Virus record (IMG/VR): IMGVR_UViG_3300020045_007777
Coordinates: 37,741 to 101,740 of that record
Strand: one strand, 5' to 3'
Source of the DNA: a virus
Lineage: Duplodnaviria; Heunggongvirae; Uroviricota; Caudoviricetes; Crassvirales
DNA length: 64,000 nucleotides
Under the pieces are notes generated by a model that saw only the letters and a list, made by a program, of their open reading frames with translations, did no database searches and had not been told where the DNA came from. The position numbers and the translations under genes are program-made. Positions within the stretch are counted from its first letter, which is position 1. The number at the start of each line of letters is the position of its first letter. Shown here piece by piece: positions 1,856-46,814 of this stretch.

Positions 1856-4800
1856 TTATGTTGTATAATACACAATTACATCATGCAATATTAATTTTTT
1901 ATTGTTAGTATTATTAAATTCTAATTCTAAAAATACCCAAGGATTTCTAATTCTATCCATAGAACCTTTTTGTCTTGGAAGAGTTGCTCTCCAAGTTCTA
2001 AATTTTCTTGATAAATTAGAATTAACAACTAATGGTATTACTTGAGAATCTTGATATTCATTCCATAATCTTACACTTGTTAAAGTTGATGCTGGTAAAT
2101 CTATATCATTTATATAAACTTCAGATTTATACTCAATATTATTAAATACACAATCTAAATCAGCTTCAGGATTAACTAATACTCTTATTTTACTAGAGTA
2201 ATTAATACCATAAAAATTATTATAATCTCCAGCATATTGTTTATATAATTGTCTATTATTAGGATTTGTAGTAATAAAATTATTTCCTTTACTTATATAT
2301 CTACTAGGTAAATAATCATAAAAAGAAGTAAATGTTTCACTACCTTCATTATATGCTAATGTAAATGATTTATTTTTTTGTAAAAATGTCATAAACATAT
2401 CATTATTAATATAATCAAATCCTGAAGTAACACCTAATTTTATAATAGGATTATCTATTTTAAGATCATCTAAGACAGTATTATTTGTAAAATAGGTATG
2501 TAATCCTTTTACATCTGATAATCCACCTATACCACCTTTAAATATGTTTAATGATTTATTTAAAGTATCATAGAAATAAAATGATGATGGAGAATTAACT
2601 ACAGACCATTTATTTAATGTTCCTGATTCAGTAGAAATATATTTATATTCAGCTAATACTGCTCCTGAACCTAATTCTACTGATATACCATCAGAACCTT
2701 GAGTTTGTACACGAGGTTGTATAGATAAAAACGCAGTTGCAGTATCTTGTAATGTATATATTTCATCTTTAAAATTATGTAAAGAATTTATTGGTCCATA
2801 TCTACCATCTAAAGTAATGACATTATTAGGTTGTAAATCAGTCCAACTATCAATAATTTCACCAGGAACTTTAACTTTACTTGATATAACATTTGTATCA
2901 AACGAATCAAGTCTTCTAAATTTATAATCTAAATCTCTTCTAATAATTAAATTACTATCTTGAGAATAAACTCTATTATATTCTTGATATTCATCATCTG
3001 TAGGTTGAAATCTATTATCCCAATTAGAAATAGATAAATCATTTCTATTTTTTAAATCAACAGTTGTTTCAACTCTAAATTCTACAATTTCAGTAACTTG
3101 TTCAGAACTATTAGAATAAACTTCAGTTTCAGTTTTAACTAACTTAGTGAATATAAAATTATTAACAAAAGTATCTCCAAAATGTAAAGCATTATATACA
3201 TTATTAGCAATAGGTTTATAATCACCTATCTCAACATAATTACTTCTTTTTTTAGATTCATAAGTATTACCTCCATAAATATTTCCAAGATATATTAAAT
3301 TTTTAGGTATTCTAAATTCACCAATTAAACCAACACCAGTGTCAGTAATTCCTGACTGGTTAAATAAATCTTCTAAAGATTTTCTATTTCTAGTTAATAA
3401 ACTGTTACCACCTAAAGCGAAAGTAATTGCTGGTGCTCCCCAACTATTTACAGAATTTAAAAATAAATCTGCAGACAATGGTTGTAATGAATTTTGATAA
3501 TACATATCAGCATTATTATTATACATTGTTCTACCTTGACCTAATGTTGTTATTTCAGGTACACCATATACTGTTTCGTCAGCTAAAGATTGATAATATT
3601 CACCTATATATCTTCTATATGTTTGAACAAAATTCATTCTTTGTCTATCATCACTTAAATCAGCATGTCCAAAGAATCCATGTAATTGTATTTTAGTTCT
3701 AGAACCTGTAATCATATCATGATTTCCAGGAAGAGTTGTTTTTACATCATAAGGATATATTGCATTTCTAATTTTAATCTCATCCGTAATTAGTTTAGTT
3801 TGATTATCTCTAACTTGTGACCAAGCTGCATTATAATCATTTTCTAAACCACCAACTATATTTAATCTTGTTTGTGCTAAATTTTGTATTATATTAAAAG
3901 TTATTTCAGGAGAATACATTTGCATCAATTTATTAAATTGATAAGTACCTGCACTCCATTGTCCTGCTTCAACTGCTTTAAATACTTCATTTCCAGCATC
4001 ACCTTGACTACCATCATGTTGTGGATGATATTCATCAAATCTATCAAGTCTATGGTAAGTTTGATTACCCCACATAGGATCTAAATATTCATCAAATCTT
4101 CTCATCATTGATGGAATTTTAAGTCCATTATGAACTTTCTCTTCTTGATCAGCTGTTACATTAGCGCCACTTTGATCTCCTACTACTTGCGATAACATTC
4201 CATTAAGTAATCCTTGACAAATAATAGTCCTATCTAAAATAGTTCTTTCAGCTCTTAATAATCTATATCCAACAGGTTTTAGACTTTCATCATAATTACC
4301 ATTTTCATCTAAAAAATTAGATTGATCATTTAACCATACATAAAATAAAGGTTTCAATGTTATTTCTAAAGATGCATAGTATCCATTTAAATTTGATTGA
4401 CTATTTAATACAATATTTTTAAAATCTGCAATCCATTTAGGTAAACTATTTTGACCATATTTATTATAAAATTGTATTGCTAATCTATATACTTCATTAT
4501 CTTTTAAAAATTTTTTATCAGCTTCATCTTGAGTAAAATTATTAATACCAATTTGATTTCTTAAAATTCTGTATTTAAGATAAGGTCCTTCACCACCAAG
4601 AATATTATTATTAAATTGACGATTATATAAATCATAATCTTTATTAATTGCTGAAAATTTATAATTAATTACAGGTGTATTAGTATTAATATTACCTGAA
4701 CCAACTGTAATAAAAGGTTCATTTGAATCAATTCCACCAGTTGTAGTTTCATATAAAGAATTATATATTCTAGTTGTAGTACTATTAGGTGCAAAACTAT

Positions 4801-37568: not shown

Positions 37569-38096
37569 ATGTCTAAAGTTATATTAAAAAAATTAGGTCA
37601 TATTCAATATCCAGTGGGTACAGATATAAAAGGAACAATGATAGCTGTTAAAAATATGGCTGATGCTATTAAAGAATTATATCCATTACATGAAAATATG
37701 AAATATGGATTTAATTTATTTGTTAGAGGTTCAAGTGGTGCAATTATTGGAGGATTAATATGTGAATATTTATCTAATTATCCAATTAGAATTTGTCATA
37801 TTAAGAAAGAAGGTGAGTCATCTCATTTTAATAGTTCATATTTGACAAATCGTGAAGCTGCTAAAAATATCATTATTGATGATTTTATTTCAACAGGTGA
37901 AACTGTTAATATTATTTATCAAAAAATGATAGACAGTGAAATTAACAATGTTGATTTATTAATTGTAAGTGGTACTATATATGAATCATATTTACAATTT
38001 AAACCATTAAATATTATTTGTGAAGATTATTATCCTAGTGATAAATCAATGAATTATATTGATCAAACAGAAACAATGTTAGAAATACCATTATAA
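37569..38096 (+). CDS. Phosphoribosyltransferase (PRTase type I)-like protein
   Basis: NIIIDDFISTGETV matches the PRPP-binding motif (hydrophobic x4, D-D, x3, T-G-x-T). Confidence 0.55.
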   Translation: MSKVILKKLGHIQYPVGTDIKGTMIAVKNMADAIKELYPLHENMKYGFNLFVRGSSGAIIGGLICEYLSNYPIRICHIKKEGESSHFNSSYLTNREAAKNIIIDDFISTGETVNIIYQKMIDSEINNVDLLIVSGTIYESYLQFKPLNIICEDYYPSDKSMNYIDQTETMLEIPL

Positions 38097-43896: not shown

Positions 43897-44259
43897 ATGA
43901 TATATTCAAATTTAAATAATTATATAGATTTTTTATATAAACAAGCTATTAATAATATAACTGAATATATTGAAATGAAATATATTCAAAATATAAGTAA
44001 ATCTGAATTAAATAATACAGATGAAATATTAAAAGTAATTGATGATAAACTCATTGAAGATTATTTAAAGAAAAGAGGTTATACTATGAATTATATTTTA
44101 CAAAAAAGAGTTATGGTTAAAGATTTTACTTGTGTATATGTTTATAAAAATTATATAGAAATATGGCATGATAAAATTGATAATAATAAATCTATATTTA
44201 TTAAAGAAAATTATTTAACAAGTTTACCTATAACTTTAAATTATATGGAAACTATTTAA
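43897..44259 (+). CDS. Hypothetical protein
   Basis: 120-aa ORF. Confidence 0.45.
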   Translation: MIYSNLNNYIDFLYKQAINNITEYIEMKYIQNISKSELNNTDEILKVIDDKLIEDYLKKRGYTMNYILQKRVMVKDFTCVYVYKNYIEIWHDKIDNNKSIFIKENYLTSLPITLNYMETI

Positions 44260-44878
44260 AATTAAAAGTGAAAAAGGCATTGTAGTAACTAATGTCCATC
44301 CCAGAATGCCTGATATTCTAGTATTCTAGATAGACCCGAAAATAAATATAAGTTATCTGAAAGATGTAACACAGAGCAGCATTTGGTTAGACAGGTGTAA
44401 GCTACCTGTAAGTCCCTCATATATTTATTAGTGAAGCTGTAAGATGGATTTTTTAAAATAAAAGGGGACGACTGGTTTTGACAGCAAATATGAATTATAC
44501 AATTCAGTGAGAGAGATAACTCTAAACTAAGGTGAATATATTTAAATGGAAACGTTGAAAATACTCAAGTAAAAGCTAACATGACTGTAGTACATAACAT
44601 CTTAAATGGTGGTACTGGACTAAAATCAAATGATTTGGTAACAATTGAAACTGATTTGTTAGTAGCTGCCTAAGCTATATTAGGAAAACCTGAAGAGGTC
44701 GTTATCATTAGATTATAAAATGAATTAGATTCATAACCATACTTACAGATTTTTCTATTAGATTAAATAGAATGGTGGAGTTGACTATAACTAGTCGACC
44801 TTTCTCCAACCCAAAGGAATTTAAATAAAAGGGTAAACTGTATAAAATTGTATAAGGAAGTTTGTTTGGACGGGAGTT

Positions 44879-45606
44879 TGGAAGAGATGGACTCCATAAT
44901 ATAGTAATATATTATTAGAAATTGCTTGAATTGCTGGAACGCTAAGTGGAAACATATGCCAATCAGCAGCTAAGCCACAAGGAAGATTGTGGAAAGTTCA
45001 GAGACTAAGGACACTAAGGTGAGCCTACAGCGAGCAACTCCTACATTAAGTTGAGGATGAAGATATAGTCCGATCCTTTAGTGAAAACTAGAGTTGAAAA
45101 ATAGTCTTTCATAGGCTAATTTTCTTTTTATTTGGTTAGTTGAATATTTACCATTTTTTATAGTAACTTTATCATGATATTTTATAATAGTATTTATACG
45201 ATGTATTTTTTTAGGATGTTTAGATTTTAATAATTTACATATTTTAATACATTGTTGACTACTTGAACAAGATAAAGTATAACCTATAGAATGATTGACT
45301 TTTTTACTTGGTTTTGTAGATATATATGTTTTTATTGAATGATTTATCAAAAGATAATCTTGTATTTCATATAAAATTTGTATATATGTATTTGTAAAAT
45401 CTATTTTTATAGATTTATATTTATCATTTTTACTATGTTTTACCATAGTAATTGATCCGTCTGCATCAAAAAAGCCTGAAATGTAATCTAAATTCATAAT
45501 ATTTATATTTAAGATGTGTGGTTAATATCAACCATGTCTAATATACAATATTATTTATTAAAAGTCAAGTAAATATTAAATTAATTTATAATAAAAAAAT
45601 ATTATG
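44879..45606 (+). mobile_element. Group I intron inserted in the tmRNA T-loop
   Basis: P1: exon GGAGUU (44873-78) pairs with IGS GACUCC (44890-95), with a U-G pair at the 5' splice site. P7 strands GACUA (45003-07) and AGAUAUAGUCC (45061-71) match the group I core consensus (cf. Tetrahymena CAGACUA...AAGAUAUAGUC). The 3' terminal G is at 45606. The intron carries an antisense LAGLIDADG ORF. Confidence 0.65.
45078..45497 (-). CDS. LAGLIDADG homing endonuclease (single-motif)
   Basis: YISGFFDADGSI at the N-terminus. 139 aa. It lies inside the intron in opposite orientation. Confidence 0.8.
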   Translation of the reverse strand: MNLDYISGFFDADGSITMVKHSKNDKYKSIKIDFTNTYIQILYEIQDYLLINHSIKTYISTKPSKKVNHSIGYTLSCSSSQQCIKICKLLKSKHPKKIHRINTIIKYHDKVTIKNGKYSTNQIKRKLAYERLFFNSSFH

Positions 45607-45694
45607 CGATTCTCCCCGTCTCCACAAGATATAGACTGAGGGGTTGGTCTGGTTTTGATTAATAAATGATGACTGCTAGGAAAGACTAGCAACT

Positions 45695-45768
45695 GGTCTT
45701 ATAGCTCAGCTGGTTAGAGCGTCACACTCATAATGTGAAAGTCCCTGGTTCGAGCCCAGGTAGGACCA
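45695..45768 (+). tRNA. tRNA-Met (anticodon CAT; could alternatively be a lysidine-modified Ile2)
   Basis: Cloverleaf: acceptor GGTCTTA/TAGGACC, D-arm GCTC-AGCTGGTTA-GAGC, anticodon stem TCACA/TGTGA with loop CTCATAA, T-arm CCTGG-TTCGAGC-CCAGG, discriminator A. CCA is not encoded. Confidence 0.85.
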
Positions 45769-45800
45769 CTAATTATTTAGACATAATTAGAATTAGTTAA

Positions 45801-46814
45801 TTGGAAAATGTGAGTGAATTAAGTAGCTCACATTTTTATAAAAATTTAAATAGTAACAATATGAAATCAATTTTTAAAGTATTAGGTTTTAAAGAACCTA
45901 CATTAGTTGCTGAAGTAATTGCAACAGAATTAGTTAAATCTAATTATCCTAAAGAAGTTTTAGAAATTCATCATGAATTTGAAATAGCTTCAGAAAAATT
46001 ATTAGAAGAAGCTAATAATATTATTAATACTCAACCAAAAGTAAACAAATCTAAAATTGAAAGATTAAGTAAATTTGGATTTCAACAAGTTAAAGAAGTT
46101 AAAGATTCTGTAAAAATTCTTGAAGTTACTAAAATGTCTGAAGAAACAATTAACATTGTTAATTATTTTAAAAGAGAATATCCTTTTCAAAAATTTATTA
46201 CAGAAGAACAAGTTGAATATATTTGTCATAAATATAATTTAGTTTGTGGTGATGTATCAAGATTTAGAGGATTTGTTCCAGATAAAAATCTTAAAGAAAT
46301 TGAAAATTTTAAACTTAAATCTAAAGATGATATGTCTCCAAAATTAGGGGAATTTTATATTATTAAAAATGATTTTACTTTAATTAATATTAAAGATGTT
46401 GAAAAAGAAGGTTATAAATTTTATGGAAATAAAAATTTAGATTGGTTATTAAATAAATATTTACCAAATAATAATTATTCATATTTAGGAACTAGTTCAT
46501 CTTCTAGTGAAACAAATATTCCTGGATGGGGTAAAACATTTCAATATAGAATCAATAATTTAGAAGATTTTGATATTAAAAAAGCAATTGAATTTAATAC
46601 TCAAACTTTAAAAATTTGTGCTCCTGTTAAAGATATGGATATTTCAGGTTTAGAACTTAAAAATGGTTATAAACTTGAAGCTAAAAAACATATTCCAGAT
46701 CCAATTGTTTTACAACCAGTTAAAGGAGGTTATTTAATTCTTACAATGTGGGCTGATGAAACATTTGATCCATATACTGAACCAATATTAAGAAATGATG
46801 AAATGTTAAATTAA
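45801..46814 (+). CDS. Hypothetical protein
   Basis: 337-aa ORF (alternative start at the MKSIF Met near 45861). Confidence 0.5.
   Translation: MENVSELSSSHFYKNLNSNNMKSIFKVLGFKEPTLVAEVIATELVKSNYPKEVLEIHHEFEIASEKLLEEANNIINTQPKVNKSKIERLSKFGFQQVKEVKDSVKILEVTKMSEETINIVNYFKREYPFQKFITEEQVEYICHKYNLVCGDVSRFRGFVPDKNLKEIENFKLKSKDDMSPKLGEFYIIKNDFTLINIKDVEKEGYKFYGNKNLDWLLNKYLPNNNYSYLGTSSSSSETNIPGWGKTFQYRINNLEDFDIKKAIEFNTQTLKICAPVKDMDISGLELKNGYKLEAKKHIPDPIVLQPVKGGYLILTMWADETFDPYTEPILRNDEMLN

Follow-up and report, generated by a model that had tools for sequence, protein, structure and literature searches.

A group I intron with an antisense LAGLIDADG endonuclease gene in the tmRNA gene of a crAss-like phage

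Introduction

Group I introns in the TΨC loop (T-loop) of the transfer-messenger RNA (tmRNA) gene were first seen in Clostridium botulinum, and a tmRNA database paper of 2025 now lists 883 intron-form tmRNA sequences, with insertions at four subsites of this loop (PMC11915505). Thirty-six of these have LAGLIDADG genes, placed either after P9 or in P7.1. Two of the subsites are rare. Position 3 is confined to the class Bacteroidia and position 8 to Saprospiraceae, with 9 and 14 instances, respectively, among 459,935 prokaryotic genomes in Supplementary Table 2 of that paper, which has no virus rows. No intron in the set exceeds 700 bp, and the longest tmRNA gene has 1152 bp (PMC11915505). Subgroup IA3 has been reported for tmRNA introns. 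Here, we analyze a stretch of 64,000 nt (positions 37,741 to 101,740 of the IMG/VR virus record IMGVR_UViG_3300020045_007777), hereafter the window, in which a tmRNA gene is split at position 3 by a group I intron containing a LAGLIDADG homing-endonuclease gene on the opposite strand.

Two other sets of described systems are close to this locus. In the I-DirII and L2066 introns of nuclear ribosomal DNA (rDNA), His-Cys box endonuclease genes lie antisense to the intron and have their own promoter (PMC3073962, PMC9548176). Antisense endonuclease genes are mentioned neither in a 2014 review of bacterial group I introns, which does not mention tmRNA either, nor in the 2025 tmRNA database paper (PMC11915505). 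The other set comprises collaborative homing and endonuclease-gene invasion, as described for the cyanophage psbA intron with the free-standing F-CphI and for T4 mobE with I-TevIII (PMC3984707).

Results

A complete group I ribozyme interrupts the T-loop

The tmRNA gene spans 1162 bp (44464-45625) and is split in two. It starts with GGGGACGACTGGTTTTGAC, and its ...GGACGGGAGTT and CGATTCTCCCCGTCTCCAC are separated by 728 nt (Table 1). When run on the unspliced window ARAGORN found no tmRNA, and the Rfam tmRNA model gave no match to the split gene, even at E = 10. Splice sites were sought by exhaustive in silico splicing, in which each T or C near the start of the ribozyme was combined with every position after a downstream G, candidates were kept if they rebuilt a T-arm of 5 bp and 7 nt, and ARAGORN was used as judge. 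A single junction, 44878|45607, yields a tmRNA. The product is 434 nt long, reads ...GGGAGUU|CGAUUCUCCC across the junction, and has the 7-nt T-loop UUCGAUU. The insertion point lies between T-loop nucleotides 2 and 3 (GGGAG-TT^CGATT-CTCCC), i.e. at position 3 in the numbering of PMC11915505, which is one of its four TΨC-loop subsites. The acceptor stem (GGGGACG/CGTCTCC) contains a G3·U70 pair, and CCA is only partly encoded at the 3' end.

As assessed by the Rfam model RF00028 (Intron_gpI), the 5' part of the intron is a group I ribozyme. The match (44853-45093) covers the full length of the model (positions 1-253), with a score of 94.2 bits (gathering score, 50; E = 1.3e-24). It was obtained on a 1.5-kb region with laxer filters. 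At the default gathering setting, Rfam reported only a tRNA for the whole window and missed the intron because of its speed filters, which also missed the clearly homologous intron of the related locus L001. The ribozymes of relatives were therefore mapped with an nhmmer ribozyme profile. The relatives (loci with L numbers) came from an endonuclease-based scan of viral contigs and of one genome per prokaryotic species, and their exon junctions were mapped with ARAGORN.

The structural elements listed in Table 1 were derived from the Rfam alignment and consensus folding, and their covariation was assessed in a MAFFT alignment of 22 related introns from independent contigs. In this alignment, pairing is seen in 84% of the cells, and both sides have changed in 35 of the 59 pairs. 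None of 500 shuffles reached the observed covariation measures, and sliding the partners by 1-3 columns lowers pairing to 33-51%. All five pairs of P7 are invariant and form in 22/22 introns, in agreement with the Rfam alignment, and AGAUAUAGUC flanking P7 fits the Rfam consensus. The columns of P1, P8, and P9 show misleadingly low pairing (41-70%), because MAFFT put many rows out of register. P9 co-varies cleanly in an alignment of four sequences, and P1 and P10 were examined directly. In P1, a U·G wobble plus four or five Watson-Crick pairs is present in 20 of the 22 mapped introns, L019 having three such pairs and L024 being unclear. P10 forms 6/7 pairs in L001, L016, and L030, and 7/7 in L019. 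The guide co-varies with the T-stem, GACCC occurring with GAGGG or GTGGG, and GGTCG or GGTTGA being found in position-8 introns. Between P7 and P3', where subgroup IA3 introns have the extra elements P7.1/P7.2, lies a single hairpin (P7.1) with partial covariation support, which makes IA3 no more than a candidate subgroup.

An earlier reading made from the sequence alone (the sequence-only reading) had proposed the P1 pairing GGAGUU/GACUCC with a U-G at the 5' splice site, a P7 formed by GACUA and its partner, and an intron spanning 44879-45606 and ending in G. All three proposals hold, the first as U44878·G44890, the second as the invariant P7, and the third through the sole junction accepted by ARAGORN, which makes G45606 the last nucleotide of the intron. 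The group I assignment is borne out by the covariance model and by a P3-P7 core with covariation, and the tmRNA identity of the host gene by ARAGORN on the spliced sequence. The same reading had described the region as much less AT-rich than the genome. This is true of the tmRNA exons and the ribozyme half (44300-45100), with a G+C content of 0.31-0.39, but not of the endonuclease half (45100-45600), which at 0.19-0.21 is like the remaining genome. Taken together, the window harbors a complete and conserved ribozyme, positioned so that splicing restores a canonical T-loop; from this structure we infer splicing itself.

The same ribozyme lineage is also found in Dulem virus 41, another crAss-like phage (L035 1470-1669; PP511520.1), where it splits a polymerase/primase gene and contains no endonuclease gene. 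It scores 126 bits with the ribozyme profile and its core is ∼72% identical. The ribozyme family is therefore not restricted to tmRNA genes.

Layouts of the endonuclease gene in related loci

Five layouts were found. The endonuclease gene lies antisense within a position-3 intron in 12 loci (the window, L001, L005-L010, L012, and L015-L017) and antisense within an intron at position 7 or 8 in four (L002, L003, L021, and L025). It is in sense orientation within a position-3 intron in four others, two of them viral (L020 and L022) and two bacterial (L030 from Marinoscillum luteum and L028 from a Saprospiraceae metagenome-assembled genome). In another four, a free-standing endonuclease gene lies just downstream of a tmRNA gene with an intron of 194-225 nt that has no open reading frame (ORF), the two genes being convergent in L018, L019, and L024, and on the same strand in L029. 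Finally, L004 has a free-standing, convergent endonuclease gene beside an uninterrupted tmRNA gene. The endonuclease family is constantly associated with tmRNA 3' ends in the mapped loci. In L023 and L026 the endonuclease is present, and neither a ribozyme nor a tmRNA was detected. For the L002 tmRNA, no 5' half could be located.

The sequence-only reading had called the antisense orientation unusual. It is so when set against the bacterial and phage literature searched, but not within this intron family, in which 16 of the 20 intron-borne copies are antisense. Considering the precedent of I-DirII in nuclear rDNA, the arrangement is therefore not unprecedented either. That reading had also considered that the ORF might be a free-standing gene. 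This does not apply to the window, and it does apply to five related loci, which are informative on the origin of the element.

The two orientations fit differently into the intron. In the antisense loci (15 checked), the last 10-22 nt of the gene overlap the ribozyme, apart from one read-through case, in which the overlap is 65 nt. In the window, the stop codon and the last four codons lie within P9 on the other strand. Among the four sense copies, three have a TAG stop codon that provides the terminal G of the intron (…TAG^CGA…). The ORF of sense copies extends to the very end of the intron (L028 400-480, L030 2885-2895, and L020 2895-2902).

Next to the free-standing genes of L004 and L024 there are remnants of tmRNA 3' ends. 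In L004 the relic lies beyond the start of the gene and its sequence, CCCCTATGCTCCAC, is identical to the 3' exon of L022. The search for relic exons with three mismatches was too permissive, and only the L004 and L024 matches beside the gene start are meaningful. A T-arm-like hairpin and ATCACCTCCACCA lie near the start of the free-standing gene in L024 (2440-2480), and TCACCTCCAC or TCATCTCCAC, which resemble a tmRNA 3' end, are found on the endonuclease gene's own strand in L018 (1090-1099) and L019 (122-131). These flanking sequences suggest past rearrangement or inversion of a cassette consisting of the tmRNA end and the endonuclease gene. The subsite in L024 is ambiguous, in that ARAGORN accepts a junction after loop nucleotide 6, and P1 resembles that of position-3 introns, for which a terminal A would be required.

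In a neighbor-joining tree of the enzyme, a clade of 139-aa proteins is wholly antisense, with position-3 and position-8 hosts interleaved and L004 nested within it, and a looser clade of 134-aa proteins mixes all layouts. We also retrieved phage tmRNAs independently of the intron, via a conserved tag-coding motif described below. Among the 45 viral contigs found in this way, 38 have an uninterrupted tmRNA, three have an intron with an antisense endonuclease gene, and four could not be assigned. When the proteins of 50,697 phage records in GenBank were searched, the endonuclease had no close homologue there, the only gene retrieved being 29% identical and belonging to Sphingobium phage Lacusarx; a cultured phage with this layout is thus not available.

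A different arrangement was noticed in L040. Downstream of its tmRNA (3111-3490), on the same strand, lies an ORF (2546-3079, minus strand) that encodes 177 aa with an HNH-like motif. After this ORF, the T-arm and acceptor end of the tmRNA occur again, as GGGAG-TTCGAGC-CTCTC CGCCTCCAC. The same tmRNA hotspot thus appears to be exploited by another endonuclease family, a duplicated target being left behind.

Features of the endonuclease

The gene product scores above the Pfam cut-offs for LAGLIDADG_3 (29.4; cut-off 22.5) and LAGLIDADG_1 (27.2; cut-off 23.1), so that the LAGLIDADG gene that the sequence-only reading had placed on the opposite strand (45078-45497) is confirmed. Homologues form at least 170 clusters with 54-78% identity; nearly all are ∼139 aa long, and many of the clusters sit on contigs of ∼100 kb. 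Residues D11, D13 (the catalytic Asp), and G14 are invariant in 41 sequences, as is the motif. An AlphaFold2 model with a predicted local distance difference test (pLDDT) score of 91.8 shows an α-β-β-α-β-β-α core made of helix 3-13, strands 14-19 and 29-36, helix 39-53, strands 58-62 and 72-77, and helix 80-89. The top matches of the model in the PDB are I-CreI and I-Vdi141I (Foldseek probability 1.00, TM score ∼0.55-0.6), while sequence searches of the PDB gave nothing significant (E ∼0.04). The Pfam scores, the fold, and the pattern of selection speak against a spurious ORF, and the occurrence of the same layout in 16 independent contigs speaks against an inversion created by assembly; both ideas were rejected.

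Some LAGLIDADG proteins are maturases, and the bI3 maturase is among the fold matches, so the intron might be real and its protein a maturase, or else a decaying passenger of an element that is no longer mobile. The latter could be read into the presence of the intron in only 3/45 of the tmRNA family members, which could also mean loss; here, this patchy distribution, together with the empty site of phage phi14:2, is counted for mobility. However, the ORF is intact in every antisense locus, pairwise ratios of nonsynonymous to synonymous substitution (dN/dS) are 0.12-0.36, the catalytic Asp and the whole motif do not vary, and the family has many members with tight conservation. In fold, the protein comes closest to active homodimeric nucleases, and versions of the ribozyme with no ORF exist (L018, L019, L024, L029, and Dulem virus 41), so the core has no obvious need for a protein. 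We consider a passenger or maturase improbable. The dN/dS values indicate purifying selection on the gene, and together with the Pfam scores, the predicted fold, and the invariant catalytic Asp they point to an active enzyme. By analogy, the single motif and the size of the protein imply that it would act as a homodimer on a near-palindromic site.

A promoter-like element upstream of the endonuclease gene

The best sigma-70-like site in 44200-45900 is TTGACT-17-TATATT (45568-45540, minus strand), which lies upstream of the endonuclease gene. An alignment of the upstream 135 nt from 13 diverged gene copies showed that a TTG-N19-21-TAnnTTTG pair is kept in all 13 loci, including the free-standing L004. 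This pair fits the consensus of the primary sigma factor (sigma-A) of Bacteroidota, i.e. a -33 TTTG and a -7 TAnnTTTG (PMC7366714). The conservation suggests that the endonuclease gene probably has its own host-type promoter.

The pair could instead be a ribozyme or 3' splice-site element read backwards, in which case the gene would have no promoter and its antisense position would be a neutral accident of inversion. Inversions do occur, since sense and antisense copies both exist; the region is <70 nt from the 3' splice site, where group I introns can carry P9.x or P9.0; and in the window the motif is at chance level. This reading is nevertheless unlikely. The same pair with the same spacing is found upstream of L004, which has no intron, ribozyme, or splice site, and this argues against an origin as a ribozyme element. 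In addition, a promoterless antisense ORF could not stay under purifying selection across 16 loci.

Between the promoter-like element and the ATG lies a small palindrome (Table 1). A comparable sequence, GGGTTATAT..AACCC, occurs in L001, L005, L015, L016, and L004, and is absent from the others. By analogy with I-TevI, for which autorepression has been described, the palindrome could be an operator, or it could form an RNA hairpin. Its half-sites loosely resemble those of the T-arm (GGGTT...).

The phage, its tmRNA tag, and an empty site

The genome has PHROG matches to major head protein, portal, large terminase, DNA polymerase, and helicase. In the major head protein, it shares 59% identity with Cellulophaga phage phi14:2 (Crassvirales) and 46-48% with gut crAss-like phages. 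The genome is that of a crAss-like phage, and its host is probably a member of the Bacteroidota: phage relatives infect Bacteroidota (Cellulophaga, Flavobacterium, and Bacteroides), which is a consistent host range, the replicon being viral. Its genes form two divergent blocks, with structural and packaging genes on the minus strand (window 1-33000), and replication genes, the tmRNA, and the tRNA on the plus strand (37500-64000). Within the plus-strand block, very few genes lie on the minus strand, and the endonuclease gene is among them.

The sequence-only reading had proposed a search for homologous tmRNA genes with no intron, and these exist both in phi14:2 and in the 38 uninterrupted contigs mentioned above. 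The phi14:2 tmRNA is intact and 470 nt long, its 5' part is 79.5% identical to that of the window, and its empty site reads GGGGG-TT^CGAAT-CCCCC. This gene (L033 1201-1670; KC821624.1 4031-4500) is unannotated in GenBank, where small coding sequences for "hypothetical proteins" (gp012-gp014) are drawn over the region.

The tag of the phage tmRNA is seemingly long, with 41 aa in the window, the commonest tag length in the published tmRNA database being 10 aa. ARAGORN calls only the final eight codons, ETDLLVAA (44647-44673), the tag ending in ..LLVAA*. In several relatives the ARAGORN-called tag includes the motif ANM(T/Q)VVHNILNG. This motif is kept at the amino-acid level between the window and phi14:2, the nucleotide differences being synonymous, and it occurs in at least 45 viral contigs plus phi14:2 (window 44548-44673, L033 1290-1400, and loci L036-L080). 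Downstream of the tmRNA, a gap of ∼70 nt precedes a tRNA-Met gene (region 45626-45769) and contains a terminator-like hairpin on the minus strand (45693-45672). tRNA genes also cluster beside the tmRNA in several related loci.

Table 1. Coordinates of the features of the split tmRNA gene and its surroundings in the window
Feature	Coordinates	Strand	Details
tmRNA exon 1	44464-44878	+	Acceptor 5' strand GGGGACG, tag frame, pseudoknot region, T-stem 5' strand GGGAG, T-loop nt 1-2 (TT)
Probable tag frame	44548-44673	+	41 codons + stop, GNVENTQVKANMTVVHNILNGGTGLKSNDLVTIETDLLVAA*; open from GGA 44548, probable resume codon
P1	44873-44878 / 44890-44895	+	Exon GGAGUU with guide GACUCC; U44878·G44890 wobble at 5' splice site + 5 Watson-Crick pairs
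Group I intron	44879-45606	+	728 nt; Rfam RF00028; unique ARAGORN-validated junction
P1 loop	44879-44889	+	
P10 5' strand	44883-44889	+	AGAGAUG; pairs 6/7 with exon 2 CGAUUCU (45607-45613)
P2 hairpin	44896-44915	+	8 bp, GUAA loop; compensatory changes at 8/8 pairs (22 introns)
P3	44922-44928 / 45031-45037	+	Compensatory changes at 5/7 pairs; encloses P4, P5, P6, P6a, P7 5' strand, P7.1
P4	44932-44937 / 44963-44968	+	Compensatory changes at 4/6 pairs
P5	44941-44942 / 44958-44959	+	
P6 and P6a	44969-44997	+	P6a compensatory changes at 6/6 pairs
P7 pseudoknot helix	45003-45007 / 45066-45070	+	GACUA / UAGUC; encloses P7.1, P3 3' strand, P8
P7.1 hairpin	45009-45026	+	Between P7 and P3'; covariation support partial
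P8	45039-45057	+	
P9 hairpin	45076-45093	+	7 bp, GAAA loop; Rfam alignment, covariation
LAGLIDADG homing-endonuclease gene	45078-45497	-	139 aa, one motif YISGFFDADGS; strand opposite to ribozyme
Small palindrome/hairpin	45520-45533	-	GGTTGATATTAACC; between promoter-like element and ATG
Promoter-like element	45538-45568	-	TTG (45568-45566)-N20-TATATTAG (45545-45538); 40 nt upstream of ATG
tmRNA exon 2	45607-45625	+	T-loop nt 3-7 CGATT, T-stem 3' strand CTCCC, acceptor CGTCTCC, discriminator A, then C
tRNA-Met (CAT)	45695-45769	+	Directly downstream of tmRNA; context, outside intron

Discussion

T-loop tmRNA introns with a LAGLIDADG gene after P9 are already published, and the intron of the window resembles them in its host gene, its loop, the place of its endonuclease gene after P9, and its adherence to the U(-1)·G and terminal-G rules (PMC11915505). 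It differs in that it is in a phage genome, outside the Bacteroidia to which position 3 had been confined, and in that its endonuclease gene is on the opposite strand, a point of orientation on which that paper is silent. Moreover, the intron (728 nt) and the whole gene (1162 bp) are both beyond the maxima of that set. The antisense layout and the phage reservoir appear to be unreported.

The I-DirII and L2066 introns share with the window a group I intron in the gene of a non-translated structural RNA, with the endonuclease on the antisense strand. Their endonuclease genes are driven by their own promoter, the counterpart of which in the window is a putative bacterial promoter of sigma-A type. 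They are in eukaryotic nuclear rDNA, encode His-Cys box enzymes, and have a Pol II promoter, a spliceosomal intron, and a poly(A) tail, unlike the window. The I-DirII type is an analogue, to which the window does not belong. T4 introns of subgroup IA are phage group I introns as well, and their endonuclease genes have their own intron-internal promoters, with regulation separate from the host gene, but these are sense-strand genes of the GIY-YIG and HNH families in protein-coding genes. As for the enzyme itself, I-CreI and I-Vdi141I are its best fold matches and have a single LAGLIDADG motif and a similar size, but they are only 16-19% identical and are encoded in sense orientation in 23S rRNA introns.

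We consider it likely that the tmRNA intron of this crAss-like phage, whose host is probably a member of the Bacteroidota, is a mobile element, which would splice, express an antisense endonuclease from its own promoter, and home. In brief, (i) the plus strand would be transcribed as a precursor tmRNA, (ii) the ribozyme (P1-P9, 44873-45093) would fold and splice at U44878 and G45606, its guide holding both exons via P1 and P10, and (iii) splicing would restore the T-loop UUCGAUU in a 434-nt tmRNA. The endonuclease would probably be transcribed separately by the host RNA polymerase, from the Bacteroidota-type promoter beside the 3' splice site whose use its conservation suggests, and this transcript would head toward the ribozyme. 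The 139-aa enzyme would then, as a homodimer, cut the DNA of tmRNA genes that have no intron, its likely target being the inverted repeat of the T-arm, GGGAG-TTCGATT-CTCCC, a natural 17-bp sequence suited to a homodimer. Repair from the intron-bearing copy would spread the intron and the gene jointly. Insertion at any of the neighboring subsites would destroy the target, which would explain why several subsites lie within a few bases of each other.

It is highly improbable that the intron does not splice and that the gene is dead or makes a two-piece tmRNA from separate transcripts: two-piece tmRNAs do exist in nature (PMC11915505), the Rfam tmRNA model does not see the split gene, and CCA is not encoded in full, but the known two-piece forms are circularly permuted and this gene is not, its catalytic core is fully conserved with compensatory changes, the positions of P1 and P10 are exactly those that would rejoin a canonical 7-nt T-loop, guide and exon co-vary across loci, and the tag frame is kept at the protein level.

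Several points weigh against a mobile, self-promoted element as just described. It is the location of the elements and the symmetry of the T-arm that suggest the target site, and splicing, the minus-strand transcript, and cleavage are predictions made from sequence. In the window, the -7 box TATATTAG differs from TAnnTTTG at one position, and relaxed matches to the promoter motif number 30 against 25.6 in shuffles (in a genome of 21% G+C). The motif is no commoner than chance there, so that the argument for a promoter is its conservation across loci. The minus-strand transcript has no evident terminator past the stop codon and would continue, antisense, through the ribozyme into the tmRNA, possibly hampering tmRNA synthesis. 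As for origin, the layouts would be compatible both with a passage from free-standing to intronic and with the reverse. L004 seems derived from an intronic ancestor that has lost its ribozyme, since it is nested in an intronic clade and retains a relic exon. Finally, the neighbor-joining tree is midpoint-rooted, i.e. in effect unrooted, and carries no resampling support.

With these points in mind, the endonuclease gene may first have been free-standing just downstream of tmRNA genes, and have become part of the intron later, in one orientation or the other. What we observe is the series of layouts; the direction of change is a proposal, in line with the invasion route put forward for mobile introns. 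As in collaborative homing, L018, L019, L024, and L029 have a free-standing endonuclease beside an intron with no ORF at the presumed target, the same family being intronic elsewhere. Unlike that stage, the gene of the window is already inside the intron, and capture is seen in both orientations; cleavage at the insertion site is a prediction here.

A more speculative possibility, which we hold to be rather doubtful, is that the phage intron and its endonuclease serve as a weapon with built-in immunity and that phages are the reservoir from which the rare copies in bacteria come. Cleavage would strike the intron-less ssrA (tmRNA) gene of the host, damaging the chromosome or disabling trans-translation, and the phage tmRNA, with its 41-aa tag and shielded by its intron, would take over. 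Antisense transcription from a host-type promoter would time the endonuclease independently of tmRNA maturation, and, from time to time, repair templated by phage DNA would introduce the rare introns at positions 3 and 8 into Bacteroidota chromosomes. Host and phage T-arms belong to the same sequence class; GAGGG-TTCGAAT-CCCTC, for example, is found unchanged in both Marinoscillum luteum and the phage locus L001.

The element of the window is not a new category of element, and its functional steps are those predicted above. New here are a phage-borne position-3 tmRNA intron, an inverted and apparently self-promoted LAGLIDADG gene, and a family that spans free-standing and intron-borne copies. 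For annotation, split tmRNA genes of this kind escape default Rfam and ARAGORN runs. Practical stakes are modest, the enzyme being a possible compact 139-aa meganuclease scaffold with a defined, universally conserved target.

T-loop tmRNA introns have so far been catalogued for cellular genomes only, and the arrangement of their endonuclease genes has been disregarded. For the rarest subsites, 3 and 8, the loci from crAss-like phages in one scan of viral contigs are at least as many as those in all sequenced bacteria. The phage endonuclease gene mostly lies backwards behind an apparent host-type promoter, and it is a bacterial-world counterpart of the antisense genes of nuclear rDNA. A single enzyme family covers each stage predicted by the endonuclease-invasion and collaborative-homing models, at subsites a few bases apart, and thus forms a natural series, unusual in its completeness, on which the assembly of mobile introns can be tested. 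This series also draws attention to the T-arm, an inverted repeat by nature, which would offer a homodimeric nuclease a ready-made target.

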